Assembly (NCBI GenBank): GCA_045863295.1
Contig: BTWA01000026.1
Coordinates: 25,197 to 89,196 of the forward strand
Length of the DNA stretch: 64,000 bases
Direction of reading: 5' to 3'
DNA from: Candidatus Hydrogenedentota bacterium
GTDB taxonomy: Bacteria > Hydrogenedentota > Hydrogenedentia > Hydrogenedentales > SLHB01
The notes under the pieces were generated by a model, which was not told the DNA's origin, made no database searches, and saw nothing but the letters and a program-made list of their open reading frames with translations. This document shows, piece after piece, positions 69 through 14,497 of this stretch. How positions within the stretch are numbered: position 1 is the first letter of the stretch; each line of letters begins with the position of its first letter. The position numbers and the translations under genes are program-made.

Positions 69-94
69 AGCACACATAGGACCGCACAGGAGCA

Positions 95-1912
95 ATGACC
101 ATGCCATACGAAGTTTCCGATGTAAGTCGTTTCGCCACGGAGGATCGGTGCAGCGTTGGGCTGCAACCTTGCAGTTGGCGCGCCCATCCCAATCGTTGCA
201 TTGCAGCAAACCTTTCCGTACCATGCACTGGGGTGGGCGATTGGGGGATTACAGCGATGGAAGTAGCCGTCCTGGAGTGTACCATCAGAGGGAAGACTGA
301 AGTCTTCACCGAAACGGTTCTCGACCGTTCCCTGTCCCCGGATGTCGTCCGCTTGTTTGTTGTGTCCGGCGATCGCATCGCGGAGATTTCGCGCCTGTTT
401 CCGGCGCTGCGCAATCTGGCGCCCGGCAAAAACCAACTCAATCTCCAGCGCACGTTCAACAAGCTGCGCGAGGGAGAGTGTGGCACGGTCTACCGTGACT
501 ATGTCTCGCTTGCCCGCATGCGCAGTAGTATGAAAACCCTGCTCTCGAATATGCGGCATACCCGCCGAAACGTGACGTGTATTGTCCAGATTCCCCCGCG
601 GATGTACACGCAACTTGAGGCGGATGTAAAACAACTTGGAATCCATCGGTCAACGTTTAGCGGCAGTGCCGGTTCCCCCGCCTCGCTATACCTGCAGATC
701 CTGCCCGATGTGGACATACCCCCGTATCTTGAAGCGAACTACATCGGGGCTTCGCGCTCTGTGCAGTTTGTACGGCGGATGATAGTCTTGGCGAGCCGAC
801 AGAACGTTCCCGTGCTCATCCAAGGCGATTCCGGCACGGGAAAGGAAATAGTCGCGAGAATGGTACATCGATGCAGGTTCAACGGTGCGGAGGACAAGGA
901 TTTCAAACCGGTTAATTGCTCGTCTATCCCCGATTCACTGCTCGAATCTGAGCTGTTTGGTCACGTGTCCGGCGCATTTACAGACGGAAAGAATACCCGT
1001 GACGGTCTGTGGAAAGCGGCAAACGACGGCACGCTGTTTCTGGATGAAATCGGCGAACTCAGCATGTCGAGCCAGGCGAAAATATTGAGGGCCATCGAGA
1101 CCAATACAGTGAGGCCGGTTGGCGCAGACAAAGACGAACCGGTCAAGGCAAACCTCATCATGGCCACCAACCGCGATCTGTTCGCGATGACAAAGCGCGG
1201 GGAATTTCGAGAAGACCTCTTCTTTCGAATTTGGGTGGGACGCATCGTGACGCCCCCGTTGCGCGAGCACCCCGAGGACATCCCCCTGTTGGCGAATTTT
1301 CTATGGAATAAAATCACAAACCAAAACGGCGTGACGCTGCCCGATGCGGTGACGGAATGCCTCGCCGAATATCCCTGGCCAGGCAATGTGCGCGAACTCC
1401 AATCCGTGCTGCGCTCCATGTGCATCGCTCACGGCAACGCCGTCACCACGCGCAAGCAAGTCGAGTTCGCCATGGACTACGCGGGGGTGCCCGCGAATGA
1501 ATTCTTCCGCGCCGACCGTGCCGTGGCGAAAAGCACGCGTCGCGCCACCCAATTGAAACAAACCCTGAAAGCCCAGGAAGCCATAGCCGTCCTGCGTGCC
1601 CTCGTCGGACAGGTCCAGAATTGCCCCACCCCGGGCCTTGCCGTGCAGGCCGGGCTGCCGCTCAGCATCTTCAATGTGCATCGTGATCTACTCACATTGT
1701 GCGAAGACCCGCTTTCATTTGGTTCAACGGAGATCTACAAAGCGGTCCTCGCGTTCGGGGGAAAACTGGGGCAGTATCTGCTCGCAGTGGACGCTAACCC
1801 CGATACGATCGGCGATCGCGCAACATGCCTCGAATTGTTGTCGGGTTCGGACGCGCTCGAAGAGCGTCTGACCAACTACTCGGCTGAACTCGTTAAAGCC
1901 CGCAGAAGTTGA
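95..1912 (+). CDS. Sigma54-interaction (bEBP, NtrC-like) AAA+ transcriptional regulator with atypical N- and C-terminal regions
   Basis: Walker A GDSGTGKE, ESELFGH.SGAFTDG (GAFTGA variant), GTLFLDEIG, FREDLFFR, WPGNVREL; SD AGGAG just before ATG 95. Confidence 0.9.
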   Translation: MTMPYEVSDVSRFATEDRCSVGLQPCSWRAHPNRCIAANLSVPCTGVGDWGITAMEVAVLECTIRGKTEVFTETVLDRSLSPDVVRLFVVSGDRIAEISRLFPALRNLAPGKNQLNLQRTFNKLREGECGTVYRDYVSLARMRSSMKTLLSNMRHTRRNVTCIVQIPPRMYTQLEADVKQLGIHRSTFSGSAGSPASLYLQILPDVDIPPYLEANYIGASRSVQFVRRMIVLASRQNVPVLIQGDSGTGKEIVARMVHRCRFNGAEDKDFKPVNCSSIPDSLLESELFGHVSGAFTDGKNTRDGLWKAANDGTLFLDEIGELSMSSQAKILRAIETNTVRPVGADKDEPVKANLIMATNRDLFAMTKRGEFREDLFFRIWVGRIVTPPLREHPEDIPLLANFLWNKITNQNGVTLPDAVTECLAEYPWPGNVRELQSVLRSMCIAHGNAVTTRKQVEFAMDYAGVPANEFFRADRAVAKSTRRATQLKQTLKAQEAIAVLRALVGQVQNCPTPGLAVQAGLPLSIFNVHRDLLTLCEDPLSFGSTEIYKAVLAFGGKLGQYLLAVDANPDTIGDRATCLELLSGSDALEERLTNYSAELVKARRS

Positions 1913-1925
1913 GGATCACCAAAGA

Positions 1926-2117
1926 ATGAACTGGCACCCACGTTCCGCAACGCAGGAGCCAACCAAACCTTTGGCCCAATACAACACCAACCAAGCCCAA
2001 GACTTGTGGGAAGACAACGCGATTATCTCCCCCCTCATCCGCCAAGACAATCCGCGCACCGAGTTCCGGTTCAAGTTCAAGCGGCAATCGAAACCACAAA
2101 CCGGGGACAGGCCGTAG
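1926..2117 (+). CDS. Possible small hypothetical protein (63 aa)
   Basis: Fills the gap between two co-oriented genes; GAGGA about 10 nt upstream; stop overlaps the SD (TAGGAG) of the next gene; no recognisable motif. Confidence 0.3.
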   Translation: MNWHPRSATQEPTKPLAQYNTNQAQDLWEDNAIISPLIRQDNPRTEFRFKFKRQSKPQTGDRP

Positions 2118-2126
2118 GAGACCTGC

Positions 2127-5100
2127 ATGGCGACATGGAAAACAGTCCGCGTCTTTATCTCCTCCACCTTCCGCGACATGCACGCGGAGCGGGACTACCT
2201 GGTCAAAGTGGTTTTCCCGCGGTTGCGAGAGCGGTTAGATCCGCACCGAATTCATCTAGTCGATATCGATTTGAGGTGGGGCATTACAGAGGAAGAAGCA
2301 GAGGACAACCGCGTACTCGACCTTTGCCTACAGCAAATTGACACCTGCCGCCCTTTCTTCATCGGCATCCTGGGCGAGCGCTATGGTTGGGTGCCCGGTG
2401 CTTTCGACGAGTCGGCTCTCTCGAAGTATGGCTGGATACAACACGCAACGGGTAAGAGCCTGACCGAACTGGAAATATTGCACGGCGTACTGCGCAATCC
2501 CGAGATGCGCAGTCATGCGTTCTTCTATTTCCGCAACCCTGCGTTTATTGATGACGTGCCCGTCACAAAACGAAGCGACCTGCGACCGGAGAACGCTGAA
2601 TCCAAAGATAAGCTGCTCAGTCTGAGAGAGGCCATTCGACAAACTCCTCTTTCGTACCCGCCAATGGAAAACTACCCTTGCCGTTACGCCGGGCTACGGA
2701 TCAACTGGCGGCTCGCGTCACAGAACCTTACCCAAGCCGACAGAGATGTGCTGCATACCTTGGCGGTGGACGGTGTAGTAGATTCAACCGAATACGCGGC
2801 ATTGGACGATCGGCTCCGGTCGGTGATCGACCAGAATAGCCACGTATTGCTGACTGGGCTTGAGATATTTGGGAACAGGGTATTTGACCAACTTTGGAGC
2901 GGCATCAAATTCGAGTACGAACTGCCCGATACCCCGTCAATTCATACGCTCCGGGAACGCGATCCACTCGCGGAAGATCAGGAATACCACGAGCGATTCA
3001 TGGAATCTCGGACACGGGTGTACATTGGCCGCGAGAATATTCAGCAGCAGCTTTTCGCCGTGGCCAGCAACGACGATACGTATCCATGCCTGGTAACCGG
3101 GCCGGCTGGCTCGGGCAAATCCGCCATACTTGCCAAATTTGCGACGGATTATTTGGCCGCGCATCCCGACGTGCTGGTCATACCTCATTTCGTCGGGGCG
3201 AGTCCCGGCTCGACAAGTCTCATGCACATGCTGCGTCGCTTCTGTCTGATCCTGGGCGATACGTTCGCTATAAAACACGTTCAAACGCAGGAAGAGAGCG
3301 AACAGTGGCAAGTCCCCGCCGAAGTCCCATTCGAACCTATCGAGCTCGCTTCCAGATTCAGGGATTATCTAAATCGTGTGCCAGGAGAAAAACGCGTCGT
3401 CTTTGTCATCGACGCTCTAAATCAACTCGACGAAACGGACAACGCGCATGCCCTTCATTGGCTGCCCCGCGAGTGGCCCACCCATGTGAAATGTATTGCC
3501 AGTTGCACTGCTCACGAGGATAATAACCCTGTCGTGCTGGCAGCATTCAAAGGGCGCCGCACGCACATTATCCGCGTACCGACGCTGACGGACGAAGAGC
3601 GCTTGGCCATTGTGACTGAGGTGCCCTCGCTAAGTGCAAAACGCCTCTCCTCAAGTCAGGTCCGTCTGCTGCTCGATAACCCGGCGACGAAAAACCCTCT
3701 GCTTTTGCTGGTCGCACTCGAGGAACTGCGTGGGTTCGGATCCTTCGATCAACTCAACGCCCGCATTGCCGCACTGCCCCGCGACGGCGATACCGTGACC
3801 GCGATTTTCACCCAGGTGATCGAACGTCTGGAAGAGGAATTTGACGCGCGGCAGGTGCGAAAAGTCCTTTCATGGCTCGCGTGCGCCCGAAGCGGACTGT
3901 CCGGGCGCGAACTACTAGAACTGCTCGAAGGCATAGGCGCATCAGAATCACGTTCGGACCTGTATCCCATCCTTCGCCAAATCCGCGCATACCTTCAGCA
4001 CCGTGGCGAGCTTTTCGATTTCTACCACGGAAGCTTCCGCGACGCCGTGGCCGGGAAATACGGTGCGCACGCCGGTGCCCAGGTCTTACATGCGGAGTTA
4101 GCCGCATACTTTCTCGCAGTGGCCGATCCAGGCGGGAACCGCTCTTGGACCGGGCAAAGCGCGCATAGCATCAATGAACTGCCTTTCCACCTCTACTCCT
4201 CTTGCGCCTACGAGACACTGGCCGCCGTACTGGGCGATACGATGTTTGCCGCGGCAAAATCAACGGGGGGCGCTGTCTACGACCTATTAACCGATTACCA
4301 GACCGCGATCCTCAGTTTTTCATCCGAGGGCAGTGATCAGACCCGCTTAGTTCAACTTGCCAGCATTTTGCGCCGATTTGCGCACGGACTCCACAACGCT
4401 CCCGAATGCAGCCTGCAACAGATACTTATTGGCATTGCAGCGCTGGAATCGCCAGACACATGTTTGGAGATGCAGGGAAACGTAATTGCCAATGAGCACG
4501 CGAGGACCGGCCCTGTTAAGCTTACCAGTTTCATTCCTCTGCACATGACTACCGGCGTCGCTCGGATCCCCGCGGATAACGATCGAGTCGTTGAGAATTC
4601 CGTTCTAAGACAAGCCTCCATTTTGTTGCGTTATAGAGGCGGAGAGTGGACAGAATTCTCGTCTGACTTCGAAGTGCTCGGAATGGGTTCGACCAATTCG
4701 GCCACCATGTCAACTATGGTCGCTGGCACGCAAGCCTTGGTGATGTGCAGCGCGAACGTTGCTCAGATTTACAGATATTGGCCCGTTGGCCAGCCTCTGA
4801 AACATCGCTGCACCCATCCCATTACTACAGCGGCCTGTTCGACGGATGATCGGTTCGTCCTGCTCGGATGCGCCGATGGCGCATTGGAACTGCTGATCTT
4901 GGAGGACGACGGGAGAGTCACAATCGAATCTAACCAATTAGGGACAATGGTCGTGGCGTCATGGTTTGATAGCGGTGGCGTCGCGGTAGCGGTGACTCGA
5001 AACGGTAGTATCCACTATCTACGGTGTGATTCGCATACTGTCACTTATTCGGCCCAAACCCCGCACCCGTGTGCTGCTGCATGCGGAGCCTGGCAGGGAA

Positions 5101-6437
5101 AAGCGTGTCTGCTATCCGAAGACAACCACCTATTCGTTCGTCGTCTGAATGCAGAGTTAGTTTGGGAAGACATGCTTCCGACTCGAGCGTACAGTCTGGC
5201 GTTTGCGGCTAAAACGGCCGATTCCGCTGCAACAATTGTATCAGGCCTGGAAGATGGTAATTTACAGGTGCGCGATGCCGAGTCGGGTAAACTCCAAGAA
5301 ACGATTCAGGTGAGCCATACCGCGTTGCAGCATGTCGAAATAGCACAAGCCGGAAATCTCATTCTGTGCCGCGACTCGGCACATAACGTCTATGTGATAT
5401 CGCCAAGACGAGGCGACGATGTCGCACGGTTCAGGTCTTGGCCGTTTTGCGGCCATATTCTCGATACTCACTGGAATGCACGGCTCAGAAGATTGTCGGT
5501 CGTCACCGCCGATGGTGAACCGTTAATAATCCACGAATCAGGTCATTCCGGCACCAATTGGAATATATCCCATGCGCCCAAGCTCGCCGCTCGGCTCGAC
5601 GATGCTAGTTTCGCCCCTGACGGCTCCATCACCGCACTCCATCGCGAACCGGGTGTAAGCCAGGTGTGGCGTCATTCTCCAGTCGGCAACAACGGGTCTA
5701 CTCCCGGCCGAACCCCTGAAACAGCCATTGCATTCAGAAGCCGGAGATTGTGGTCTGGACATGTGGCTCGTCTCTCACAACCTCAATGGCTTAAAATCGT
5801 GAAAGTTTCCCGATCAGGAAACGCATTTGCGATGTATTCCAATGCTGGGTTAATAAGTTGGGGGCGATTCCGGCTTTGGGGTATACGGCCGCATTGGGAA
5901 AAGTGGCCCAATCCAATCGACGAGTTCGCCATATCCGATAGAGGAACCGTAATCGTCTTGACACAGCAAACGGGCACGGCTATAGATAAACCACCAGCCC
6001 GGCTTCTTTTGTGCAAGGGTTTCAAGCACACATTGCTGAAAGATGGCTGGGGCGGGGGAACGCGTGGGATAGAGCGCGGAATGGCCAAACAGCTTCGGGG
6101 AATATCAATTAGCTGTGACGGACGAATTATCACGGCCATTGACCTCGCGCATAACCTGTGGGTATTCAATTTTGAACCCGACAGACCCGATGATCCTCCA
6201 AGTGGGGATATTGTGCTTTCAAACGTTGTAGCCTGCGAAACGTCGTCGTCAGGCGTCTTTTTCGCTGCATTGCACCTTGACATGACGATCCAAGTACTCT
6301 CGCGCGAAATGAAGGCCTGTCCCCAGAATCTCGGAAAACTCCTGCTGCCTGGCCAGGCTAACCATTTTCGCATCGATGAAACAGCGCGCTGTCTGATTGT
6401 CTCAGGACACAATTATGTTCAGTCGGTGAGATTCTAG
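2127..6437 (+). CDS. DUF4062 - NACHT/STAND NTPase - degenerate WD40 propeller protein (NLR-like, TEP1/NWD-like architecture)
   Basis: N-terminal RVFISSTFRDMHAERD…IDLRWG…FFIGILGERYGW…SLTELEI; Walker A GPAGSGKS; Walker B VVFVIDALNQLD; C-terminal WD-like repeats (LGCADGALEL, SGLEDGNLQVRD). Confidence 0.88.
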   Translation: MATWKTVRVFISSTFRDMHAERDYLVKVVFPRLRERLDPHRIHLVDIDLRWGITEEEAEDNRVLDLCLQQIDTCRPFFIGILGERYGWVPGAFDESALSKYGWIQHATGKSLTELEILHGVLRNPEMRSHAFFYFRNPAFIDDVPVTKRSDLRPENAESKDKLLSLREAIRQTPLSYPPMENYPCRYAGLRINWRLASQNLTQADRDVLHTLAVDGVVDSTEYAALDDRLRSVIDQNSHVLLTGLEIFGNRVFDQLWSGIKFEYELPDTPSIHTLRERDPLAEDQEYHERFMESRTRVYIGRENIQQQLFAVASNDDTYPCLVTGPAGSGKSAILAKFATDYLAAHPDVLVIPHFVGASPGSTSLMHMLRRFCLILGDTFAIKHVQTQEESEQWQVPAEVPFEPIELASRFRDYLNRVPGEKRVVFVIDALNQLDETDNAHALHWLPREWPTHVKCIASCTAHEDNNPVVLAAFKGRRTHIIRVPTLTDEERLAIVTEVPSLSAKRLSSSQVRLLLDNPATKNPLLLLVALEELRGFGSFDQLNARIAALPRDGDTVTAIFTQVIERLEEEFDARQVRKVLSWLACARSGLSGRELLELLEGIGASESRSDLYPILRQIRAYLQHRGELFDFYHGSFRDAVAGKYGAHAGAQVLHAELAAYFLAVADPGGNRSWTGQSAHSINELPFHLYSSCAYETLAAVLGDTMFAAAKSTGGAVYDLLTDYQTAILSFSSEGSDQTRLVQLASILRRFAHGLHNAPECSLQQILIGIAALESPDTCLEMQGNVIANEHARTGPVKLTSFIPLHMTTGVARIPADNDRVVENSVLRQASILLRYRGGEWTEFSSDFEVLGMGSTNSATMSTMVAGTQALVMCSANVAQIYRYWPVGQPLKHRCTHPITTAACSTDDRFVLLGCADGALELLILEDDGRVTIESNQLGTMVVASWFDSGGVAVAVTRNGSIHYLRCDSHTVTYSAQTPHPCAAACGAWQGKACLLSEDNHLFVRRLNAELVWEDMLPTRAYSLAFAAKTADSAATIVSGLEDGNLQVRDAESGKLQETIQVSHTALQHVEIAQAGNLILCRDSAHNVYVISPRRGDDVARFRSWPFCGHILDTHWNARLRRLSVVTADGEPLIIHESGHSGTNWNISHAPKLAARLDDASFAPDGSITALHREPGVSQVWRHSPVGNNGSTPGRTPETAIAFRSRRLWSGHVARLSQPQWLKIVKVSRSGNAFAMYSNAGLISWGRFRLWGIRPHWEKWPNPIDEFAISDRGTVIVLTQQTGTAIDKPPARLLLCKGFKHTLLKDGWGGGTRGIERGMAKQLRGISISCDGRIITAIDLAHNLWVFNFEPDRPDDPPSGDIVLSNVVACETSSSGVFFAALHLDMTIQVLSREMKACPQNLGKLLLPGQANHFRIDETARCLIVSGHNYVQSVRF

Positions 6438-6462
6438 CCAGTGAGAACGAAAAGGTACTGAA

Positions 6463-7584
6463 ATGAACACTGCCAAGGACTACTTCGTGGGCGCAACTAG
6501 CGTCGTCAGTATGTGTTTACTTGTAAGTTCATTCGTGCTCATGTATCGCAACTTCTTTACTGAATCGCACTATTCGTGGTGGCTCATCGGCGGCCTCGCT
6601 TTACAGTTTCCAGTGATGGCAAAGATAATGGCGAAGCTCTTTCGCGGATCCGTCCGGCCGTCTGATGAAGTTATCAATCATGCTTTCGATCGCGTCTACG
6701 AACAGAGACTTCGTTCGGTTGTATTCAAATTTCCCGAAGGCTGGCGCTACAAGAAGCAAGGACGCGGCGTGCACAGTTTCTACATGCAAGAATGTGGCCA
6801 CGCGGCAGTAATACACGTCGAGCTTACATATCTCTTCGAAACCGAGATTGACTCGCTGGAGGGGTACTTGGCGTACGCAACGGAATTTGTGCGTGGGCTA
6901 AACGCCGAACTTATGTTTAACCGTGTCGCAGATCGATGGGGAATGCGTATTCACGAGTTTGCGTACAAGTCACCGCGTAGTTGCGGGCAACGGCTGACTG
7001 TGCCCTATCATGGCACTGAATATGGGTTCTTTTTGCGGACCGATGTCGCGGACCTGGCGCAGCCTGCAGGTAAGCTCTTCGATCACTTCTTGAGCCACGT
7101 GCGATTTGATCCCCCACCACTAAAACCGCAACTGGCATTTGGTGGACAATTGTCAGTTGCACTTCCAGCGGAATTCATGCCCGTCCAGACCCAAAAAACG
7201 GACACCGCAACTTGGAAAAGCACGACTCGAAAAGACTGTAGCATCTGGTTGCAGTACCGTCACGAATGTGAAGCACCAATGCGCCCTGAACTACTTCGCC
7301 CGCTGCTGAAAAGCTGCCCCCGTCCCGAACAGGGCGCGAACGACTTCGTCCGGGGACTAAAAAAGGGTCAAATCAGACTATCTGAAAATGGATTTGGGGG
7401 ATACATCTATTATCAAGCCACGGATAGGTGGGGTTGGTTAGCGGCGGTGGGAGACCTACCGTCGGGCGGGCGTGTTCTGTTCTGCCTTGACGACAAAGAC
7501 CCTGAACAGGCTCCATATTATGGGACATACTTTTATGAGCAAATCTCAATTGAAATTCTAGTTACCTTGTCGGAACGGCTGTAG
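6463..7584 (+). CDS. Hypothetical membrane-anchored protein (2 N-terminal TM helices plus soluble domain)
   Basis: 373-aa ORF 25 nt after the NACHT gene; two hydrophobic stretches in the first about 60 aa. Confidence 0.65.
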   Translation: MNTAKDYFVGATSVVSMCLLVSSFVLMYRNFFTESHYSWWLIGGLALQFPVMAKIMAKLFRGSVRPSDEVINHAFDRVYEQRLRSVVFKFPEGWRYKKQGRGVHSFYMQECGHAAVIHVELTYLFETEIDSLEGYLAYATEFVRGLNAELMFNRVADRWGMRIHEFAYKSPRSCGQRLTVPYHGTEYGFFLRTDVADLAQPAGKLFDHFLSHVRFDPPPLKPQLAFGGQLSVALPAEFMPVQTQKTDTATWKSTTRKDCSIWLQYRHECEAPMRPELLRPLLKSCPRPEQGANDFVRGLKKGQIRLSENGFGGYIYYQATDRWGWLAAVGDLPSGGRVLFCLDDKDPEQAPYYGTYFYEQISIEILVTLSERL

Positions 7585-7684
7585 TGGCGCAAGGCGACAC
7601 AATAATGATGAAATATGACATATGACCGATTCTACAAGATTGAAAGAGACGAGGTAAGGCTGACAGGAGCATGACTGGAAGAAG

Positions 7685-9445
7685 ATGACCTATACTTCGA
7701 AAATACGCGGGGGGTGGGAACCCGTTCGAGCTTTTTGGCGCGTTTGGGGGTGGCCTATTATCTGGGCGCTTGGGGTGGCGTCGTTTGTGTGCGGATATGT
7801 GGGGTTCGCGCAATATTACCAGTCACAGGCCGAAGTCCATTCGGTGTTGGAACTGGTGTACCGCACGCTCCAGCTCTACGTCCTCCAATCCGGAGCGTTG
7901 GACTATCCGGTCCCGCCTGCGCTTGAGGTCGCGCGGTTTCTTGCGCCCGCCGTGTTCGGTTACACGGCAACCCGCGCGCTGACATCGCTGCTGCGCGAAC
8001 AGTTTCTCACGTTATGGCTATGGCGGCGGCGGGAGCACGTCGTTGTGTGCGGACTTGGGCGCAAGGGCCTCCAAATCGCAAAAGACTTCAGCAACCGGTA
8101 CTCCGTCGTTGTTATCGAGCCCGATGCGCACAACGACCGCATCCGTCACTGCCGCGACTTTGGCGCGCGCGTCCTCATCGGCGACGCATCGGACATCGAC
8201 CTGCTACGGCAGGCGGGCGTGGCGCGCGCGCGTTACGTCGTCGCCACGACGGGCGACGACGGGGTAAATGTGGAAATCGTGCTCCACGCCCGCGAACTGG
8301 TGCAATCGCGCCCCGCGATGTTCTCGCATACCTGCACGTGCCTGGTTCACATTGTCGACTCCACATTGTGTGCGGTCTTCAAAATGGCGCCGACTTTTAC
8401 CTCAGGCAAGGATTGGTTCGAGGCAACGGTTTTCAACATATACGAAAACTGCGCAAGGCAACTGTTCGAAGTGCAACCGCTGGACCGCGTGCCCATCGGC
8501 GTTTCTAGCCGGGTGTCGGTCCACCTCGTCGTAATCGGATTCGGCCAAATGGGTCAGGCTGTCGCGCTGCAGGCGGCACGCGTGGGCCATTTCGCAAATG
8601 GACGCCGGCTGCGCATCAGCGTCGTCGATCGAAACGCGAAGGAAGCACACGCCGCCTTCCTTGCGTTGTATCCGCGATTTGGCGACATCTGCGACATCGA
8701 GTTCGTTCACGCACTCGCGGGAAGCGCGGAAGTCAACGAACGCTTGATCGCTTGGGCGACCGAAGAGAACGCGATGCTGACCGTTGCCATTTGCCTCGAC
8801 AACGACACGCGCAGTCTGACGCGGGCCCTGGCTATCGCGGAGAAGCTCCGGGAGTATAACGTGCCCGTTCGTGTTCGGATGGAAGAAGACACGGGACTGG
8901 CCAGCTTGCTCGTATGCGAGGGCGTATGTCATCCTTCGATTGCATACATCCGCGCATTTGGCCAGATTGATCGCGTGTGCGCGCTGAACCGGCTACTGTC
9001 CGAAGAGCAGGACCGCAAGGCGCGCCGGCTCCACAATCGGTTTATCGCCGTGGCGCGGCAAGATCTCAAGAGACCGAAAGATGACCCGGCGCTTCTGGAC
9101 TGGGAGAAACTCCCCGAAACATACAAGGAGTCGAACCGGCAGGCGGCGGATCATCTTCCGGTGAAACTGCGCGCAATCGGAATCACAGAGAATGGCGATC
9201 TCACACGCGAATTGAAAACACGTGAGATCGAAATTCTAGCCCGCATGGAACACGCGCGCTGGATGGCCGAGCGCCAGCTTTCTGGCTGGAAGTACGCGCC
9301 CGGGCCGAAGAACGACACGAAGAAGACGAACCCAAACCTCGTGGCATGGTCGAAACTCGATCGCGCGAATAAGGACAAAGATCGCGGCGCGGTCCGCGAA
9401 ATGGTAAGTTGGCTCAAAGTCCCAACGCACAGGAGTGCTACATGA
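7685..9445 (+). CDS. Channel-like TM segment + TrkA_N (RCK, NAD-binding) domains + two RyR repeats
   Basis: TM-pore helix-TM N-terminus; HVVVCGLGRKG, IGDASD.DLLRQAGV.RA; second Rossmann motif VVIGFGQMGQ; RyR motifs WEKLPETYKESNRQAA and LARMEHARWMAERQLSGWKY…PNLVAWSKL. Confidence 0.88.
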   Translation: MTYTSKIRGGWEPVRAFWRVWGWPIIWALGVASFVCGYVGFAQYYQSQAEVHSVLELVYRTLQLYVLQSGALDYPVPPALEVARFLAPAVFGYTATRALTSLLREQFLTLWLWRRREHVVVCGLGRKGLQIAKDFSNRYSVVVIEPDAHNDRIRHCRDFGARVLIGDASDIDLLRQAGVARARYVVATTGDDGVNVEIVLHARELVQSRPAMFSHTCTCLVHIVDSTLCAVFKMAPTFTSGKDWFEATVFNIYENCARQLFEVQPLDRVPIGVSSRVSVHLVVIGFGQMGQAVALQAARVGHFANGRRLRISVVDRNAKEAHAAFLALYPRFGDICDIEFVHALAGSAEVNERLIAWATEENAMLTVAICLDNDTRSLTRALAIAEKLREYNVPVRVRMEEDTGLASLLVCEGVCHPSIAYIRAFGQIDRVCALNRLLSEEQDRKARRLHNRFIAVARQDLKRPKDDPALLDWEKLPETYKESNRQAADHLPVKLRAIGITENGDLTRELKTREIEILARMEHARWMAERQLSGWKYAPGPKNDTKKTNPNLVAWSKLDRANKDKDRGAVREMVSWLKVPTHRSAT

Positions 9446-9723
9446 GCTACGCCCCAAGACCAATCGACACATCAGGTGTGGTGTTGACAGAAGAAATTGC
9501 AAAGCTGACGGAACTGCTCGCGGAAAATGCCCACGAGCATTGGGCCAAGCAGCGTCTCAGCGATGGCTGGCGCTACGGTCCCACGCGGGACGATGCCAAG
9601 AAAGAACATCCCTGCCTCATTCCCTACGGTGATCTCCCCGATTCCGAAAAGACATACGACCGAAAAATGGCCATAGAAACCCTGAAGGTAATCCTGGCCC
9701 TCGGCTATCGCATAGCGAAATAG
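9442..9723 (+). CDS. Stand-alone RyR (ryanodine receptor repeat) domain protein, 93 aa
   Basis: YAPRPIDTS.V.L…LAENAHEHWAKQRLSDGWRYGPTRDDAKKEHPCLIPYGDLPDSEKTYDR; SD AGGAG at 9431; ATGA overlap with the upstream stop. Confidence 0.92.
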   Translation: MSYAPRPIDTSGVVLTEEIAKLTELLAENAHEHWAKQRLSDGWRYGPTRDDAKKEHPCLIPYGDLPDSEKTYDRKMAIETLKVILALGYRIAK

Positions 9724-9765
9724 ACGATTGATACGGACCAATTAACGATTTCGAAAGGAGGCCGC

Positions 9766-12552
9766 ATGAAAACGGTCGTCGTGACTGGCGATGTCATGGT
9801 GGACCACCACCTTTACGAAGGCAAACGCTTGACGGCATCCGCGACCGATCAACCGGGCTTTAAAGTGTGCCGGCAGCATGGAGGCGCCATGGCCGTTTGC
9901 GATCTCGTTAACGCGGTCATAAACCAGTCGATAACGGACTCTGCTGCCGAGATGGAATGCAAGGCGAAGGCCGTAGAAGACGCCAGACAGGCCTGCGCGA
10001 AAGACAGTGAAAAGGAAGCTGCACAACAGAAACTCGCGGAGGCGGAAGAGGCCCTCCAGAAACATAAGCGGGTAAGAGAATCTGACTGGAAAGCATGCTT
10101 CGGTCTGACGACGCCCCTGGAACACGAGATACCCTGCGGGCATCATGCCCTCTCCATATGGAAACCATTCCAAACAATGGAAGGCAATGAGGAGAAGAAA
10201 GTCTGGCGGGCGGATTTGCTGATGGGCTACGGCCACGATGACGCTCCAGCAAAATGCGACACGGAGAAGTGCGAGTATACACCCAAAGTCCTTTCCCCGC
10301 CGCCGCCACGCGCGGATGTCCTGGTGTTGGACGACGGCGGCTTCATTTTTCGACACCGTTTCCAACGCGATTGTTGGCTTTTGCCATCGGCGCAGGAAAG
10401 TAAGCCCCATTGGATTGTAATGAAGATGAGCGGGCCGGTCTGCCAAGGCGATCTGTGGTCGCACCTCAAGACGTATGGAGATCGGCTTATCGTCGTGGTC
10501 TCCGCGAACGATTTACGCCAAGAGTGCGTACATTTGGGCGAAGGACTTTCATGGGAGCGCACCGTAGAAGAACTGCGGGACGCGCTGCTAACAAACCCTG
10601 CATTGAGCGACTTGGTGTCCGTTCCGCGCCACTTAATTGTGCTGTTCTCGGCCGACGGCGCGCTGTGGTTGGATAGGTCTGGCGAACAACTCAAAGCGAC
10701 GCTTGTCTTCGACGCCGGTGGCATTGAGGGCTGGTGGGGGCGGAAGATCGAGGGCAAGGCCTTTGGATACATGTCGTGCATGGTTGCCTCTGTTGTTCGG
10801 GCGGCGATGCACGATTCAGAGGAACCGGCGATCGATCCGGCGGTTCGGGCAGGCCTCGCCGCAATGCGGGACCTTGCCCGGTGGGGACACGGTGAGGTAA
10901 ACGACGGCTGGCCATCCGGCTTTCCGTGCGACCGGTTGGCGCGGGTGATCGTTCGGGGCGGCAGCGGCTTCGCCGTCACGCGCGTCCCGTGGAGCGAGGC
11001 CGAACGAAACCTCTATGCCCCCGCACCCGAAAATCCAGACGGGAAGTCTCCTTGGCGGATTGTCGAGACGTCTCAGTGCCCCTTTGGAGACGGAAAGACA
11101 CCCTCGCTGCTCGGCCTGGCCTCGCAGGTAGTGATCTATGGAGAACTGGCCATTCGCGCACTCCCCCATGCCCGATTTCGCAACCTGCTAACAGCCGACC
11201 GTATTGAAATCGAGGCCCTGCGATCCATCGAAGTGCTGATGAACCGGTATCTCGACGAGACAAAACCAAAGCGGCCGCTCTCGATAGGCGTGTTTGGCCC
11301 GCCGGGCGCCGGCAAATCATTTGGCGTCCGGCAGCTTGCCGACGACATCTTTGGCGCAAAAGCATGGTTGGAATTTAATCTGTCACAGTTCAAGGATTCC
11401 AAGGATCTAATCGGCGCATTTCATCAAGTGCGGGACACGGTGCTAAGCGGGCAAACCCCTACCGTCTTCTGGGATGAATTCGATTCCCGCGAATATGAGT
11501 GGCTCCAGTACCTGCTCGCGCCGATGCAGGATGGGCGCTTCCAGGAAGGCCAGATCAGTCACTACATTGGCAAGTGTGTCTTCATTTTCGCCGGAGCGAC
11601 CGCCTATTCGTTTAACGAGTTTGGACCTGCGAAGCCGCCGGACAAACGGTTCGATGCAGACGCGTGGAAAAAATTCAGCTTGCGCAAAGGCCCGGATTTC
11701 CACAGCCGCTTGGACGCCTATTACGACGTGCTCGGGCCCAATCCGCGCACGGTATTGCCCCACGATGGCTGCGGCTCGCAACGCGTACCGGACCCAACAG
11801 ATGTCTGCTACCCGCTGCGGCGGGCCTTGCTGATTCGATCTCTCTTGAAAGCCAAGAATTCGGCGCTCGATTTCGATCCGGAATTGCTCCACGCCCTGCT
11901 GCAAACTGCCGAATACACGCACGGGGCACGCTCCCTCGAAAAACTCGTTACAGCACTCATTCCCACAAAAAAAGGCCAGTCAATCCGGCGCTCGGCATTG
12001 CCGCCGCCGGCCCAACTCGCGATGCACGTGACGGAACCAGAACAGTTCATACACATGCTGGGCCGACACGTCCAATATCGCAATCCTGAAACGATCAATG
12101 CCATTGCACAAGGCATCCACGAAACGTGGCGTGAGCTTTCGGCAATAGAGCATTGGAAGATGCAGCCCGCCTATGACATGCCATACGAATTGCTTGGAGA
12201 TGTGGAAAAGGATGAAAACCGTGCGGCCGCCCGCCGCATCCCGGACATCCTCGCCCTCGCCGGACTGCGGATCGAGCAGTCCGATCTGCCACACGGCGCC
12301 GGCGTCGAAGACCAGTTGAAGCAACCGCATCAACTGCGGCGGTTGGCAGAAGCCGAACACGAAAGGTGGATGGCGCATCGCATCAAGAACGGATGGCGTT
12401 ATAGCGAGCAGCGTGACGACGCAAAGAAGCTGCACCATGCGCTCGTGCCGTATGCCGACTTGGCTGAGGCCGACCAGAAAAAGGATCAGAATTCGGTGAA
12501 GCACTTCCCCGAAATGCTGCGCCGCGCGGGTTACCGTATCGTTTGGGCATGA
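9766..12552 (+). CDS. PfkB/HldE-like N-terminal region + P-loop (AAA-like) ATPase + two C-terminal RyR repeats
   Basis: MKTVVVTGDVMVD start; Walker A GVFGPPGAGKSF; Walker B VFWDEFD; RyR motifs IAQGIHETW…PYELL..VEKDENR and LAEAEHERWMAHRIKNGWRY…LVPYADL; SD AAGGAGG. Confidence 0.88.
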   Translation: MKTVVVTGDVMVDHHLYEGKRLTASATDQPGFKVCRQHGGAMAVCDLVNAVINQSITDSAAEMECKAKAVEDARQACAKDSEKEAAQQKLAEAEEALQKHKRVRESDWKACFGLTTPLEHEIPCGHHALSIWKPFQTMEGNEEKKVWRADLLMGYGHDDAPAKCDTEKCEYTPKVLSPPPPRADVLVLDDGGFIFRHRFQRDCWLLPSAQESKPHWIVMKMSGPVCQGDLWSHLKTYGDRLIVVVSANDLRQECVHLGEGLSWERTVEELRDALLTNPALSDLVSVPRHLIVLFSADGALWLDRSGEQLKATLVFDAGGIEGWWGRKIEGKAFGYMSCMVASVVRAAMHDSEEPAIDPAVRAGLAAMRDLARWGHGEVNDGWPSGFPCDRLARVIVRGGSGFAVTRVPWSEAERNLYAPAPENPDGKSPWRIVETSQCPFGDGKTPSLLGLASQVVIYGELAIRALPHARFRNLLTADRIEIEALRSIEVLMNRYLDETKPKRPLSIGVFGPPGAGKSFGVRQLADDIFGAKAWLEFNLSQFKDSKDLIGAFHQVRDTVLSGQTPTVFWDEFDSREYEWLQYLLAPMQDGRFQEGQISHYIGKCVFIFAGATAYSFNEFGPAKPPDKRFDADAWKKFSLRKGPDFHSRLDAYYDVLGPNPRTVLPHDGCGSQRVPDPTDVCYPLRRALLIRSLLKAKNSALDFDPELLHALLQTAEYTHGARSLEKLVTALIPTKKGQSIRRSALPPPAQLAMHVTEPEQFIHMLGRHVQYRNPETINAIAQGIHETWRELSAIEHWKMQPAYDMPYELLGDVEKDENRAAARRIPDILALAGLRIEQSDLPHGAGVEDQLKQPHQLRRLAEAEHERWMAHRIKNGWRYSEQRDDAKKLHHALVPYADLAEADQKKDQNSVKHFPEMLRRAGYRIVWA

Positions 12553-12616
12553 CGACAAATGAACTACATGTCCGGCGCCGCAATACCAAGGCCGTTGTTT
12601 GAGTGGCTTCTCACGA

Positions 12617-14497
12617 TCACGCCGGCAGGTGCGGTCCGTGGAACGCCAGCGATGCGGCCCACTCGTAGTTCTCCGAGGCCATGATGTCGCTTGCCGTTCG
12701 GACGTGGGCGCGAATTTCGTCGGGGGTTTCCGCTTTCCGAAGGTCCTCGGCGACATCGTTCAACAACCTCGCCATATTCGCGGACCGGCTCGAGATCCGC
12801 TCGCCATCGAGCAGGGTGTTGATCGCCTGAAACGTTGCGCCCCACAACGGCAGCAGCACGGTGATGCCAAACAGGACGGCCGTGACCGTGCCCATGCCAT
12901 GCTTGCCCGGTTCGCCGTGGCCGATCCCTATAGCGTGGAAGAAGGCGGCTACCAGCGTCAGCGAGAAGAGCACCAGTCCCACGCGGTGCAGCGTCTTTGG
13001 CAACTTCAGTTTCCTCTCGACATTATCCATGTGCCATTGGGCCTGCGGCGTGATCCAGTCCTGCTCGATGAAATCTCGCAATGCCAGCCACCCGGCCTTT
13101 TCGTCCGCGGGATGTAGCGCGGGGCCGGAGGCGCGCATGATGGCCACGTCCACCCAGTCCGCGGGCCGCCGGTAAAAAGGAAGGTGGGATACATCGCGGC
13201 GTTGCCCCGACGCGGTCATTTCGCCCAGCAAGTCCGTGTACAATTTCGCGCGCAGGCGCTCGGCGAAATGGCGGTCGTGCAGCCATTTTTCGTGCCAGCG
13301 CTCCTTTCGCGATATGCGCAGCAACGCCAGAATTGCGACCATCGCCAGCACTTCGAGAAAGGCCGCCGCATACCACGACGGCGCAAACAACATCTGCATG
13401 ACGGAAACCGTTACGCCGGAAGCGGCGAGTGTAAAAAGCCCTCGCGCGCTTCTAAAGTGCAGATTCTGGTAGTGAAGCGACAACACGTCGCTCCGGGCAT
13501 AGTGCGCCAGCGTTTGCCATGTCTTGTCATTGAGAACCCACTCCGGCGGGTGAGTTTTCTGCGCGGTGTCCAGCATCGAATCCTGGTGTTCGCGAAATTT
13601 CCGCGCAATCGATTCCGCCGAAACCGCGGTGTCGCGGTTGTACGCCGCCAGCGCGTGATAACTTGGCGAAAACTCCTTCGCAGTCTGCGGGAGTTCGCAC
13701 GTTTTCAATTTGACTGGCGTCTCTTCTGAATCGGAAGATTCCGGCACTACTAACTTCGCGGGAGTTCGAGGGTTGTCCGCGTTAATCCATAGAATGGTTC
13801 GCCCGTGCAGCAGCGCGTGCTTCACGATATCGCCGGTCCCCCCCCATCCTTTGGCGGGTTTCCCGTCCCACACGGCGATGAGTATGTCGCACTGGTGCAC
13901 GACCAACTCGCCCGCTTCCCGGTACAGACAGTCTCGATTCGAACCGTGCGCGTCCAGCATGCCTGCGATTCCCGGCGATGCGTCCAGCGCGAGGAGCTTG
14001 CGAAACGCCTCCAAACTCGGCGCGTCGAAATCGTGTTCGTATTCCTCGGCATCAAACGGTAGAACCACCTGCAATTGGGAGTCCTTCCGCGCCAGTACAG
14101 CCTCCGCCACGATAATGTCCGCGCCCTGCGCCAACGCCGAAACGACGCGCCATCGCAATGGTGTCGTCATGGACGGATCGACCACGGCCGGTGTCACCGG
14201 TACGGCCGGCCAAATCCACTTCAGCGCGGCAACCAACGCCCGATCGGCCCGCCTCTTGATGGTCTGTTGATTGGTGTGTGGCCCAAGCGGATTTGATCCA
14301 GCCGATTCCAGCACGCGCTGGACATGATCCAACAGCGCGTCCACGGCCAGTCGCACGCCCGCTTCATCTCCCAACGCCCGATGGCCTGTCACGCCGATCC
14401 GCAACTCGTACGGTATGGGTTCAGGCAGGCCGACGGAACTCGCGGAACTCCCGCTCGTTTCACTTCCCACTACAGGAGACATGATCTTCCCTCGCAC
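12617..14497 (-). CDS. SLOG-superfamily nucleotide-binding domain fused to tandem SLATT-like 2-TM domains
   Basis: LRIGVTGHR, VSALAQGAD, VVLPF, YREAG..VV..CDILIAVWDG…GGTGDIV (SLOG); two TM hairpins with WHEKWLHDRHFAERLR and terminal ENYEW (SLATT-like). Start may be ATG 14482. Confidence 0.82.
   Translation of the reverse strand: MRGKIMSPVVGSETSGSSASSVGLPEPIPYELRIGVTGHRALGDEAGVRLAVDALLDHVQRVLESAGSNPLGPHTNQQTIKRRADRALVAALKWIWPAVPVTPAVVDPSMTTPLRWRVVSALAQGADIIVAEAVLARKDSQLQVVLPFDAEEYEHDFDAPSLEAFRKLLALDASPGIAGMLDAHGSNRDCLYREAGELVVHQCDILIAVWDGKPAKGWGGTGDIVKHALLHGRTILWINADNPRTPAKLVVPESSDSEETPVKLKTCELPQTAKEFSPSYHALAAYNRDTAVSAESIARKFREHQDSMLDTAQKTHPPEWVLNDKTWQTLAHYARSDVLSLHYQNLHFRSARGLFTLAASGVTVSVMQMLFAPSWYAAAFLEVLAMVAILALLRISRKERWHEKWLHDRHFAERLRAKLYTDLLGEMTASGQRRDVSHLPFYRRPADWVDVAIMRASGPALHPADEKAGWLALRDFIEQDWITPQAQWHMDNVERKLKLPKTLHRVGLVLFSLTLVAAFFHAIGIGHGEPGKHGMGTVTAVLFGITVLLPLWGATFQAINTLLDGERISSRSANMARLLNDVAEDLRKAETPDEIRAHVRTASDIMASENYEWAASLAFHGPHLPA

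Follow-up and report, generated by a model that had tools for sequence, protein, structure and literature searches.

The block of genes at positions 95 to 14,497 of the stretch analysed here (64,000 nucleotides from Candidatus Hydrogenedentota bacterium, contig BTWA01000026.1, 25,197 to 89,196; hereafter the window) lies on a mobile island and looks like an apparently undescribed branch of bacterial immune signalling. On balance, it is probably a Thoeris-like, NAD-centred system whose RyR and SLOG domains detect a product derived from NAD and in response act on the membrane. A sequence-only reading had named five genes here, all of which are present in the positions and on the strands that it assigned to them, and had taken their combination to be an unnamed one: we found no paper describing it, and a PADLOC search, which that reading had proposed, gave no model matching the RyR, SLOG-SLATT or membrane proteins of the block. 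Its interpretation (a nucleotide signal opening membrane effectors, with RyR repeats as adaptors) is borne out in part: the co-occurrence of the genes, the lack of a PADLOC model and the TIR-like nature of DUF4062 favour it, but the adaptor role does not stand and the SLOG call is weak.

The presumed sensor and cleaver of NAD+ is encoded at 2127..6437 (forward strand), and combines DUF4062 (NIR, a TIR-like NADase domain) with a STAND/NACHT-like NTPase and a divergent beta-propeller. Pfam matches (DUF4062, E 2.3e-17; AAA_16, 3.9e-11; NPHP3_N, 25.0 bits against a cut-off of 24.8) and a Walker A motif, GPAGSGKS, at residue 325 uphold the first two parts of the original 'DUF4062-NACHT-WD40' call, although NACHT itself, at 25.4 bits, falls slightly below its cut-off of 26.7; the propeller is termed divergent because ANAPC4_WD40 (31.1 bits) was the sole beta-propeller match above cut-off. 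A motif SLTELE (residues 111–116) is common to six other DUF4062 proteins from related loci, and none of the PADLOC Avs models matches the protein. That DUF4062 is TIR-like, as had been said, now has experimental support in the available parts of three 2026 preprints, so that the sensor belongs to a type already known: DUF4062 hydrolyses NAD+ to ADP-ribose, as an Avs effector (10.64898/2026.05.01.722283; 10.64898/2026.09.04.749371), and single-gene DUF4062-STAND proteins protect by depleting NAD+ (10.64898/2026.09.04.749371). These characterised enzymes are self-contained effectors that make plain ADP-ribose, no dedicated signalling product being reported so far in the same parts of those sources; this counts against our main reading, and means that the STAND protein could work alone. 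It might then be a complete Avs/NLR-like, NAD+-depleting defence, one of two or more independent systems on one island, while the RyR and SLOG-SLATT proteins would form a nucleotide-sensing module apart from it, supplied with its signal by another enzyme, by the PfkB-AAA protein described below or by an unlinked TIR. We consider such independence unlikely, though it deserves serious attention; it fits not only the single-gene protection but also the adjacency of more than half of bacterial DUF4062 genes to known defence genes, reported in the part available of the Swarozyc preprint.

The clustering and packing of the genes on the island argue against such independence. The block ends an island of about 34 kb at tRNA-Met, as the description 'tRNA-bounded' had correctly implied: an intact tRNA-Met gene is found on the same contig, 18.4 kb upstream of the first base of the window (within which neither ARAGORN nor Rfam found a tRNA), and direct repeats of its 3' half occur at 15561..15609 (forward strand, 48/49 bases), the right end of the island, and at 21408..21457 (forward strand, 50/50 bases), the end of a further islet of 5.8 kb. 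All three RyR and both DUF4062 profile matches in the 6.3-Mb genome are in this island, within about 20 kb, which is clustering beyond chance, and the TIR_2, ThsB_TIR and TIR profiles have no match anywhere in the genome. Moreover, the five genes between 2127 and 12552 lie close together, with gaps of 25, 100, -4 and 42 nt.

The protein encoded at 7685..9445 (forward strand; Pfam TrkA_N 9.7e-26, RyR 3.8e-11) has two transmembrane helices together with a segment resembling a pore helix, followed by two RCK/Rossmann domains (motifs GLGRKG at 123 and GFGQMG at 285) and a C-terminal RyR pair. As modelled (pLDDT 91.7, pTM 0.88, with the membrane helices at the N terminus), it has a GsuK/MthK-like 2TM channel fold, with RCK domains in tandem, but lacks a K+ filter motif. 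Foldseek matched the model to GsuK (4gx1, E 4.6e-9) and also to a TrkA ring, MthK and Slo1, and the family profile aligned with MthK over positions 34–216 (E 7e-10); TM-scores against GsuK and MthK are only 0.35–0.54, owing to a different arrangement of domains. A tetramer model of the membrane domain scored 0.55, against 0.00 for the best of three controls, and passed the mark for assembly (contact agreement of at least 89% between runs; partner pLDDT of at least 73); this mark was calibrated on two copies, not four, and 20 of 30 proteins solved as pairs reach it, as does one of 23 solved as single chains. Resemblance to K+ channels of known structure may explain the pass. The protein thus resembles the RCK-gated K+ channels GsuK and MthK in its 2TM pore-type membrane domain and RCK gating domains, and GsuK in particular in having two RCK domains per chain, but unlike them it carries the extra RyR pair and lacks a TVGYG-type filter, the loop that follows the pore-like helix being variable among homologues. 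Could it simply serve ion homeostasis, as an RCK-regulated cation channel responding to adenine nucleotides or NAD(H), found near NADase genes only because both travel on mobile islands? The GxGxxG motif kept in both Rossmann domains, and the fact that the best fold matches are structures of GsuK in complex with ADP and with NAD (according to their entry titles), would suit such a housekeeping role; the lack of a conserved K+ filter and, as described below, its genomic associations make the idea a very improbable one.

A second RyR protein, of 93 aa with one R12-type repeat (RyR E 1.8e-35), is encoded at 9442..9723 (forward strand; ORF 9409–9723). The protein is likely to begin at the ATG at 9442, within an ATGA stop/start overlap with the channel gene (9442–9445) and after an AGGAG at 9431–9435, and it is probably translationally coupled to that gene. 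The third, at 9766..12552 (forward strand), comprises a ribokinase (PfkB)-like domain (1 to about 470), an AAA+ ATPase (about 480–770; Walker A GPPGAGKS at 511, AAA matches weak) and RyR repeats (about 775–928; E 4.2e-16); the N-terminal domain, which adds to the earlier 'ATPase-RyR' call, was recognized from a model (pLDDT 79.9) whose top Foldseek matches were all PfkB kinases (HldA 4e8z, 1.0e-8). Small phage anti-defence proteins, RyDEP and RyR Tad, share the R12-type fold (PF02026). In the parts available of the relevant accounts, RyDEP cleaves 2'/3'cADPR through H75 and D117, with W78 and H100 taking part in binding, and six of eight tested phage homologues bind these signals (PMC13232231), while RyR Tad binds 3'cADPR at 43 nM, and 2'cADPR and cADPR below 1 uM (10.64898/2026.06.04.730250). 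The same four residues (His-x-x-Trp, His, Asp), spaced exactly as in RyDEP, occur in the solo RyR protein (H31, W34, H56, D73) and in the ATPase fusion (H865, W868, H890, D907). Given this biochemistry and conservation, the RyR repeats are more likely to be ligand sensors than the adaptors first proposed, and their presence on a host island, fused to a channel and an ATPase, in contrast to the small phage proteins, suggests a receptor role. The channel RyR keeps H523, W526 and D566 but has T/N at the position of RyDEP His100, a point against our main reading.

In related loci RyR is also found joined to NUDIX, to RelA_SpoT or to LSDAT_prok SLOG domains (the last being the Pfam family 'SLOG in TRPM, prokaryote'), which is in keeping with our main reading. 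The NUDIX fusions, the RyDEP-like His/Asp dyad of the solo protein, and the fact that, as far as the available parts of the sources go, characterised non-animal RyR-domain proteins are all sponges or glycosidases, could be taken to mean that the RyR proteins dampen the response, sequestering or hydrolysing ADPR-type molecules against self-activation or to recycle NAD+, and that the true effector is NAD+ depletion, perhaps together with SLATT. A sponge would need no fusion to a tandem-RCK membrane channel or an AAA+ ATPase, yet these are the commonest RyR forms at the channel loci (best 80 of 344 stretches), so we give this explanation little credence.

The remaining gene of the original five, at 12617..14482 (reverse strand; ORF to a GTG at 14497, database and Atlas versions beginning at M6), specifies a putative YpsA-like SLOG domain and, after it, transmembrane modules of SLATT type. 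The SLATT part of that call holds through homologues: its own matches are below cut-off (NCBIfam SLATT_1, 25.7 bits against 41; DUF4231, 19.4 against 24.7), but among 29 aligned homologues DUF4231 is found in 19 and SLATT_1 in 12. The SLOG part is a weak assignment, to be weighed against our main reading, and draws on YAcAr matches in one of the 29 homologues and in a SLOG-only relative (E 8.2e-5), and on YpsA-type Atlas feature neighbours (0.80–0.83); no relative of known structure was found with the family profile.

Two further genes of the block had been omitted from the sequence-only reading. One (6463..7584, forward strand) encodes an orphan 373-aa membrane protein with two N-terminal hydrophobic helices, which matches no family in Pfam, NCBIfam, PADLOC or PHROGs and has no homologue among the 80 related loci (best 80 of 344 stretches); its Atlas structural neighbours all have TM < 0.5. 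The other (95..1912, forward strand) encodes a sigma-54-dependent activator (Sigma54_activat, E 9.9e-54, residues 217–383, and AAA_lid_14), with an N-terminal domain of about 160–215 aa ahead of Sigma54_activat that recurs in homologues at the L050 and G005 loci; the true start is probably M55 (nt 257), and the alignment with the G005 homologue begins at residue 54. PADLOC RtcR-type models cover only its AAA part. The sole one-mismatch sigma-54 promoter-like motif in the window (TGGCAT-N5-TTGCT, 91..106, reverse strand) faces left, towards Pup-ligase-like genes upstream of the window; at up to two mismatches the window has 40 matches against 35.6 expected, so the count by itself is not significant.

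The genes recur together elsewhere in shuffled order, as the sequence-only reading would predict. Locus G005 has nearly the whole set in a different order (sigma-54 activator, SLOG-SLATT with 57% identity, AAA-RyR, channel and DUF4062 protein), and in L026 the order is channel, solo RyR, AAA-RyR and then, in convergent orientation, a DUF4062-STAND gene. Relatives of the channel were encoded in 344 stretches, the best 80 of which were taken; the channel gene was called in 67, and the 13 in which the ORF caller did not recover it were left out. Among these 67 of the best 80, which come from many phyla, the common partners are TIR or DUF4062 genes (25 loci; TIR 19, DUF4062 10) and ATPase-RyR genes (13), followed by a further RyR protein (11), SLOG (6) and SLATT (5), so that SLOG-SLATT is a minority partner rather than a regular member; all 24 TIR ORFs at related loci were confirmed by Pfam. 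Independent systems would account for the 42 of the 67 loci with no TIR or DUF4062 gene in the available DNA (many flanks being short) and for the RyR clusters of G003 and G011, which on long contigs have neither DUF4062 nor TIR_2 within 10 kb (the only TIR-type match in G003 is on another contig). Against this, the enrichment is specific to TIR and DUF4062: the 88 direct neighbours not already labelled include TIR_2 in five cases and nSTAND1 in three, with other defence-type domains (AbiEii, PIN, ResIII helicase) as single cases. Many channel homologues lie among housekeeping genes (RhaA, MutS, DnaN and FtsA are examples of neighbours), as ion homeostasis would have it, but the linkage to TIR, DUF4062, SLOG and SLATT, the location on a tRNA-bounded island and the patchy distribution speak otherwise. 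Only 12 of 61 related genomes have RyR and 15 have DUF4062, while both occur in eight, against 2.95 expected (Fisher p 6.5e-4, for genomes that are not independent); in six of the 12 RyR genomes DUF4062 or TIR_2 is within 10 kb of an RyR gene, against a background of about 0.6% per locus. Proximity alone is no proof of coupling, since defence genes cluster in islands anyway.

For the NAD-centred signalling that we prefer, we infer a course of the following kind. What the analysis itself shows is the domain content, the folds, the conservation of residues that bind ligand and the linkage of the genes between genomes; the trigger, the identity and binding of the signal, the activity of the channel and any protection of the host are proposals built on these. 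The DUF4062-STAND protein would detect an invader-derived trigger through its propeller, and oligomerization of the STAND NTPase would switch on the TIR-like NADase. The product, either ADP-ribose or a derivative of it (cyclised or modified in some other way), would be read by the R12-type RyR domains and the SLOG-like domain of the GsuK-like tandem-RCK channel, the PfkB-AAA+-RyR ATPase and the SLOG-SLATT membrane protein, which would stop growth by collapsing the membrane potential or permeability or by remodelling a target. The solo RyR protein could set the threshold by binding or hydrolysing stray signal, and the RCK Rossmann sites may additionally respond to the falling level of NAD+ itself.

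Animal TRPM2 and ryanodine receptors are likewise ion channels with nucleotide-binding domains of SLOG-like (LSDAT) or RyR R12 type, linked to ADPR/cADPR; their pore is unrelated (6TM, in contrast to 2TM-RCK), and we claim no homology of the channel bodies. Among the closest known systems are the DUF4062/NIR NADase defence proteins PsAvs2, Vulcan, Vesta, Swarozyc and Evangelion (of the three 2026 bioRxiv preprints), which share an N-terminal DUF4062 with a conserved Glu-containing motif, a central STAND NTPase, C-terminal repeats and horizontal spread on islands; unlike in the multi-gene block, their action is depletion of NAD+, either on its own or together with one partner, according to the parts available, and the words RyR, SLOG and SLATT are absent from all three texts. 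In Thoeris, similarly, an NAD-cleaving TIR-fold enzyme adjoins effectors with nucleotide-binding domains, including SLOG, SLATT and an ion channel, and the logic is abortive and membrane-directed: the main text of 10.64898/2025.12.03.692087 gives type I as TIR with SIR2-SLOG, type VII as TIR with SLATT (signal cADPR) and type X as TIR with an ion-channel effector (signal unknown), and it is only on that main text that we set the type X channel beside ours. The same text has 'RyR' nowhere and 'ryanodine' once, for animals, and does not name it as an effector domain; our block differs in having no canonical TIR, its enzyme domain being DUF4062 fused to a STAND sensor and its receptor domain RyR. 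The NTP-dependent conflict systems of Kaur et al. (2020; PMC7159879), in whose main text RyR, ryanodine and DUF4062 are absent, share with the block STAND/NTPase sensors and effectors of the TIR fold; they too include SLATT, predicted to be a pore that responds to nucleotides, and they are likewise found in Planctomycetota, Verrucomicrobiota, Myxococcota and phyla of that kind.

The block comprises seven genes between window positions 95 and 14497, and on the sequence, fold and linkage evidence that underlies our overall reading we lean somewhat towards a Thoeris-like arrangement, in which a STAND-driven TIR-like NADase would serve RyR and SLOG readers acting on the membrane or via an ATPase. 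A sigma-54-dependent activator (95–1912, plus strand; Sigma54_activat E 9.9e-54 at residues 217–383, the N-terminal domain being without a family) is followed on the same strand by a 1436-aa DUF4062-STAND-propeller protein (2127–6437; DUF4062 2.3e-17, AAA_16 3.9e-11), a 373-aa protein whose N-terminus has two hydrophobic helices and which matches no family (6463–7584), a 586-aa channel-like TrkA_N-RyR protein (7685–9445, from Pfam), a 93-aa solo RyR protein (9442–9723; RyR E 1.8e-35) and a 928-aa P-loop-RyR protein (9766–12552, from Pfam); a SLATT-type membrane-module protein, with SLATT matches below cut-off, is encoded convergently (12617–14497, minus strand). Gaps of 25, 100, –4 and 42 nt separate the five genes between 2127 and 12552, which are therefore probably a single operon; the ATG of the solo RyR gene, preceded by AGGAG, overlaps the stop of the channel gene as ATGA. 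Because simple scans for sigma-70 promoters (5, against 8.1 in shuffles) and terminators (23, against 18.5) did not rise above background, no transcript boundaries are drawn. The count of sigma-54 motifs was likewise not above chance, and a candidate sigma-54 promoter upstream of the STAND gene (1932–1947) was rejected, since it is without the –12 GC. A sigma-54 promoter-like TGGCAT-N5-TTGCT at 91–106 on the minus strand overlaps the start annotated for the activator ORF (95–256) and faces the Pup-ligase-like genes, which are divergent. For the activator itself the likely start is M55 (nt 257), and its target may be this upstream Pup-ligase-like operon, not the RyR block.

The DUF4062-STAND sensor belongs to an already known kind of protein. 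It has the layout of DUF4062/NIR-STAND (Avs-like) proteins, with an N-terminal DUF4062 (PF13271; 63.4 bits against a cut-off of 24.7), a central STAND NTPase (matches to AAA_16, NPHP3_N and nSTAND1, Walker A at residue 325; NPHP3_N is barely above its cut-off and NACHT barely below) and C-terminal repeats, for which the propeller matches are weak and include a single WD40-type match above cut-off. Among curated defence models, PADLOC gave only PtuA at E 0.008, and NCBIfam nothing. A motif common to related proteins, SLTELE, lies at residues 111–116, and from positions in print (E97–E108) we infer that it holds the catalytic Glu of DUF4062. According to the text of one preprint, DUF4062 was characterised in 2026 as the effector of an Avs2 protein, Vulcan and Vesta, and renamed NIR (10.64898/2026.09.04.749371); in the text of another it defines the Evangelion family (10.64898/2026.06.25.731849), and the Swarozyc preprint remarks in its discussion that some DUF4062 genes share operons with other enzymes and that NADase activity may not be the sole mechanism. 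RyR, SLOG and SLATT are absent from the main texts of the three 2026 DUF4062 preprints. The DUF4062 enzymes known so far are self-sufficient NAD+ depleters, which counts against a Thoeris-like reading of the block.

How might a product of such an enzyme be read? The three RyR proteins have PF02026 scores of 121.5, 59.4 and 43.5 bits (cut-off 27.4) and match no family in PADLOC, NCBIfam or PHROGs. The residue pattern of phage RyDEP (His-x-x-Trp, then His at +22 and Asp at +17) recurs with equal spacing in the solo RyR protein (H31, W34, H56 and D73, numbered from the ATG at 9442) and in the P-loop-RyR protein (H865, W868, H890 and D907); the RyR domain of the channel keeps H523, W526 and D566, with T/N at the second His and a preceding loop that is one residue longer. 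In RyDEP itself, as the article text has it, H75 and D117 make up the catalytic dyad, with W78 stacked on adenine and the phosphates held by H100, and six of eight phage homologues tested bind 2'/3'cADPR (PMC13232231). RyR Tad binds 3'cADPR at 43 nM, and pair mutants in H129/W132, K147/H154 or K170/D171 bind about 100-fold more weakly, according to the preprint text (10.64898/2026.06.04.730250). The sequence-only reading had cast the RyR repeats as adaptors; a predicted sensor role now takes the place of that idea. The RyR proteins might instead have a dampening or recycling role, which the RyDEP dyad brings to mind; we think this improbable, and two of the three RyR domains here belong to channel-like and ATPase proteins. 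On the Thoeris-like reading, it is the solo RyR protein that would buffer or degrade ligand.

RyR occurs in other architectures in related loci, including a dual-specificity phosphatase-RyR fusion and solo or double RyR proteins of 93–187 aa. A recurrent architecture of about 900–990 aa, (NUDIX)-RelA_SpoT-(TPR)-(LSDAT_prok SLOG)-RyR, is found, among other places, at L019:4080–6779, L023:10502–13327, L025:3192–6161, L052:5763–8708, L070:14499–17180 and L097:477–3176 (L-numbers denote individual loci), and seems to represent a second family of RyR-bearing nucleotide-signalling proteins. TIR or DUF4062 genes are often near these genes.

The model of the channel-like protein, built with 59 homologues (pLDDT 91.7, pTM 0.88), has in its membrane part a long helix (residues 12–47), a short helix (54–66), a loop and a second long helix (78–102), and beyond this two Rossmann domains, both of which keep GxGxxG, and four C-terminal helices. 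Its best structural matches are GsuK (4gx1, E 4.6e-9), a TrkA ring, KtrA, MthK, Slo1 and CASTOR, and positions 34–216 of the family profile, membrane part included, align with MthK at E 7e-10. The predicted order, a 2TM pore-type domain and then RCK domains, is that of MthK and GsuK. A TVGYG-like K+ selectivity filter is absent, the segment reading LQLYVLQSGALDYPVP, and across 50 homologues the loop that follows the short helix is variable; a K+-selective channel was rejected for lack of the filter motif. Modelled in four copies, residues 9–118 scored 0.55 (best of three controls, 0.00), above the tool's mark. That mark had been calibrated on two copies rather than four; among proteins of solved structure, 20 of 30 known as pairs attained it, as did 1 of 23 known as single chains. 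Contact agreement among runs was at least 89% and partner pLDDT at least 73, with contacts via residues 51–69 and 72–88. The passing of the mark may have been driven by resemblance to solved K+ channels, and the modelled tetramer is to be taken as a likeness to a channel, not as function.

For the P-loop-RyR protein, residues 1–469 gave a model (pLDDT 79.9) for which the top Foldseek matches listed are PfkB/ribokinase kinases throughout (for example HldA, 4e8z, at 1.0e-8; TM by target 0.44–0.56 and E down to 1e-8 against PfkB structures), and the N-terminal domain is thus predicted to have a ribokinase (PfkB)-like fold. The catalytic motif of PfkB/ribokinase kinases is of the GAGD type; none was seen by sequence consensus in the PfkB-like domain of this family, which has the consensus FDPxxIEGxW...GxMxGYxSC, with an invariant Glu321 inside the FDPxxIEG stretch.

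SLOG and SLATT domains were reportedly defined by Burroughs and colleagues in NAR in 2015. The block's own SLATT protein lies below the SLATT and DUF4231 model cut-offs. Among its 142 homologues some have precomputed SLATT_1, SLATT_3 or DUF4231 assignments, one being named SLATT protein in UniRef, and in the 29 that were aligned DUF4231 matched 19, SLATT_1 12 and SLATT_3 12 at E ≤ 0.01. For the N-terminus, the assignment to SLOG is weak, and this too counts against the Thoeris-like reading: YAcAr (SLOG) matched 1 of the 29 homologues (E 0.005) and a SLOG-only relative adjoining a channel gene (8.2e-5, 22.8 bits against a cut-off of 28.2); by Atlas features the neighbours are YpsA-type proteins, at 0.80–0.83, under the 0.9 line and so leads only; and a search of the SLOG-SLATT family profile against solved structures found none, even at E 10. 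The family carries the pattern GVTGHR ... WDGxPAxGxGGT, which we take to resemble LOG/SLOG motifs.

An orphan membrane protein, the 373-aa product of 6463–7584, is encoded between the sensor and channel genes; it was assigned to no family by Pfam, NCBIfam, PADLOC or PHROGs and had no homologue in the 80 related loci (best 80 of 344), and its Atlas neighbours were all sub-threshold (TM <0.5), with a faint PsbP-like hint.

The window covers bases 25197–89196 of contig C26 in genome G000, and no tRNA or Rfam family was found within it. An intact tRNA-Met lies upstream on the same contig (C26:6742–6818), directly after a ComEC-type gene, and its 3' half is repeated at window positions 15561–15609 (48 of 49 bases) and 21408–21457 (50 of 50), from which the block is seen to be the far end of an island of about 34 kb integrated at tRNA-Met, with a 5.8-kb islet adjoining it beyond the block; no integrase was found in the scanned parts of the island. 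The islet (15610–21457), bounded by the half-repeats, has two large minus-strand ORFs, 16138–18309 (with right-handed beta-helix, pectate-lyase-like matches) and 18306–20909. Around the right end of the island (14415–16014) lie four small ORFs of 146, 120, 91 and 134 aa, without a family match in Pfam, NCBIfam, PADLOC or PHROGs (for the 91-aa ORF, in PHROGs, the one set applied to it). Upstream of the window (C26:7491–25156, equivalent to L004:2295–19960), the island encodes a second DUF4062-STAND protein, of 841 aa and with a match to an NWD1-type winged helix, two WD40 proteins of 1384 and 1096 aa, proteins of 336 and 894 aa without a family (PADLOC, NCBIfam and PHROGs included) and two Pup-ligase-like proteins, homologues of which also occur in two other RyR loci (L066 and L078). 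With the two giant WD40 proteins encoded separately after it, the second DUF4062-STAND gene resembles the sensor split into parts. The 336-aa protein (L004:12525–13535, minus strand) is 68.6% identical to a 340-aa protein of the related genome G005 (L016:14590–15612, plus strand), a match that links the island's two halves. In both genomes a DUF4062 gene comes after it (in ours, the second DUF4062-STAND gene), and the protein is a possible conserved partner of the NADase sensor.

Does the company kept by these genes extend beyond this island? All three RyR and both DUF4062 matches of the genome lie inside it, and TIR_2, ThsB_TIR and TIR (PF13676, PF08937 and PF01582) have no match in the genome, TIR-like DUF4062 only being present. 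Across 61 related genomes, RyR was found in 12, DUF4062 in 15 (25 matches) and TIR_2 in 31 (75 matches); RyR and DUF4062 occur together in 8 of the 61, against 2.95 expected (Fisher p 6.5e-4; p-values here overstate independence, because the related-genome and cross-phyla samples overlap). A DUF4062 or TIR_2 gene is within 10 kb of an RyR gene in half of the 12 RyR genomes (our own, G000, with G005, G015, G016, G049 and G058), the chance of this being about 0.6% per locus at the observed density. In G013, G034, G035 and G036 the two kinds of gene are on different contigs, several of them short, and on the long contigs of G003 and G011 no DUF4062 or TIR_2 gene is near the RyR gene. The G005 locus has a sigma-54 activator, SLOG-SLATT (57% identity), PfkB-AAA-RyR (the P-loop-RyR type) and channel genes in an order that differs from that of G000, as well as genes for the 340-aa protein and a 1249-aa DUF4062 protein; G015 has consecutive TIR-STAND, channel, DUF4062-NACHT-TPR and SLOG-SLATT-like genes. 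Two contig ends of one MAG (L026 and L027) carry a near-identical channel C-terminus and solo RyR, 65–68% identical to those of the window, the first running into PfkB-AAA-RyR and a convergent DUF4062-STAND gene, the second into a histidine phosphatase gene, a picture that hints at duplication or recombination of the module.

A pattern search with the channel alignment in species-representative genomes gave 344 stretches encoding relatives, of which the best 80 were kept; these are from Hydrogenedentota, Planctomycetota, Verrucomicrobiota, Acidobacteriota, Myxococcota, Gemmatimonadota, Bacteroidota and others (three, L055, L064 and L068, duplicate the set from relatives, and several come from close kin). 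With a simple ORF caller, 67 of the 80 yielded the channel gene; their flanks reach up to 10 kb, many being shorter, and the remaining 13 loci were dropped. Within these 67 loci (from the best 80 of 344), a TIR partner gene is present in 19 and a DUF4062 partner in 10, one or the other in 25 (26 with an extra DUF4062 gene in L055, detected by Pfam only on its duplicate, L016), PfkB-AAA-RyR in 13, an additional RyR protein in 11, SLOG in 6, SLATT in 5, and at least one of these in 39. All 24 TIR ORFs were confirmed by Pfam TIR_2, and their proteins are diverse (TIR-STAND-TPR or -WD40, CHASE2-TIR, TIR-FGE-sulfatase, HSP70-TIR-TPR, TIR-NB-ARC and ThsB-like). Among 88 direct neighbours not already labelled, from 63 loci, TIR_2 was found in 5, nSTAND1 in 3 and no family at E ≤ 1e-5 in 35; many of the rest are ordinary metabolic or cell-division genes. 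Such neighbours recall plain ion homeostasis, which has in our estimate a slim chance beside the TIR or DUF4062 partners of 25 loci. Two further points count against the Thoeris-like reading: an NADase gene is missing in the available flanks of most channel homologues (best 80 of 344), and clustering in islands can mimic coupling. The block might instead consist of independent neighbours, separate systems sharing an island; we regard this as unlikely, if less so than ion homeostasis.

On the Thoeris-like reading, the STAND sensor would fire the TIR-like NADase (DUF4062), the product would be read by RyR and SLOG domains, and the carriers of these domains would have the membrane as their target (RCK channel, SLATT) or work through the ATPase. 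A more specific proposal, which we put forward tentatively and with considerable doubt, is that RyR domains of the R12 type are native receptors of an undescribed NAD-derived immune branch, an ADPR-type ligand made by DUF4062 or TIR directly gating the RyR-tagged RCK channel. Were direct gating true, the cADPR/ADPR link to the nucleotide-binding domains of animal ryanodine receptors and TRPM would have a counterpart, and perhaps its evolutionary origin, in prokaryotes, and at least some DUF4062 domains would signal, beyond mere NAD+ depletion. RyR-domain proteins were linked to cyclic ADP-ribose only in 2026, and solely as phage anti-defence tools; the block and its relatives suggest a host role, with RyR as the ligand-reading part of membrane or ATPase effectors adjoining TIR-fold NADases. 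If this is true, bacterial NAD-based immunity would gain a receptor domain and a channel effector class, and DUF4062 a possible signalling role; direct action of cADPR-type molecules on RyR nucleotide-binding domains, an old question, would become testable in a simple bacterial protein; and phage RyR sponges would be explained as mimics of a host receptor.

As to known systems, Kaur et al. (2020; PMC7159879) predicted SLATT to be a nucleotide-responsive pore beside TIR-fold effectors, with no mention of RyR or DUF4062. In the text of the preprint on Thoeris types, type VII is TIR with SLATT, using cADPR, and type X is TIR with an ion channel, the signal being unknown; bacterial RyR domains are not mentioned in that text (10.64898/2025.12.03.692087). 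A full-text literature search yielded no account of RyR-domain effectors on the host side with TIR or DUF4062 as neighbours, and, so far as could be found, neither the RyR-tagged channel effector nor its ATPase counterpart has been described. Compared with Thoeris, the genome has TIR-like DUF4062 in place of the canonical (ThsB-type) TIR synthase, for which no match was found, and the candidate receptors are a weakly supported SLOG-like N-terminus and RyR, a domain outside the described Thoeris receptors.
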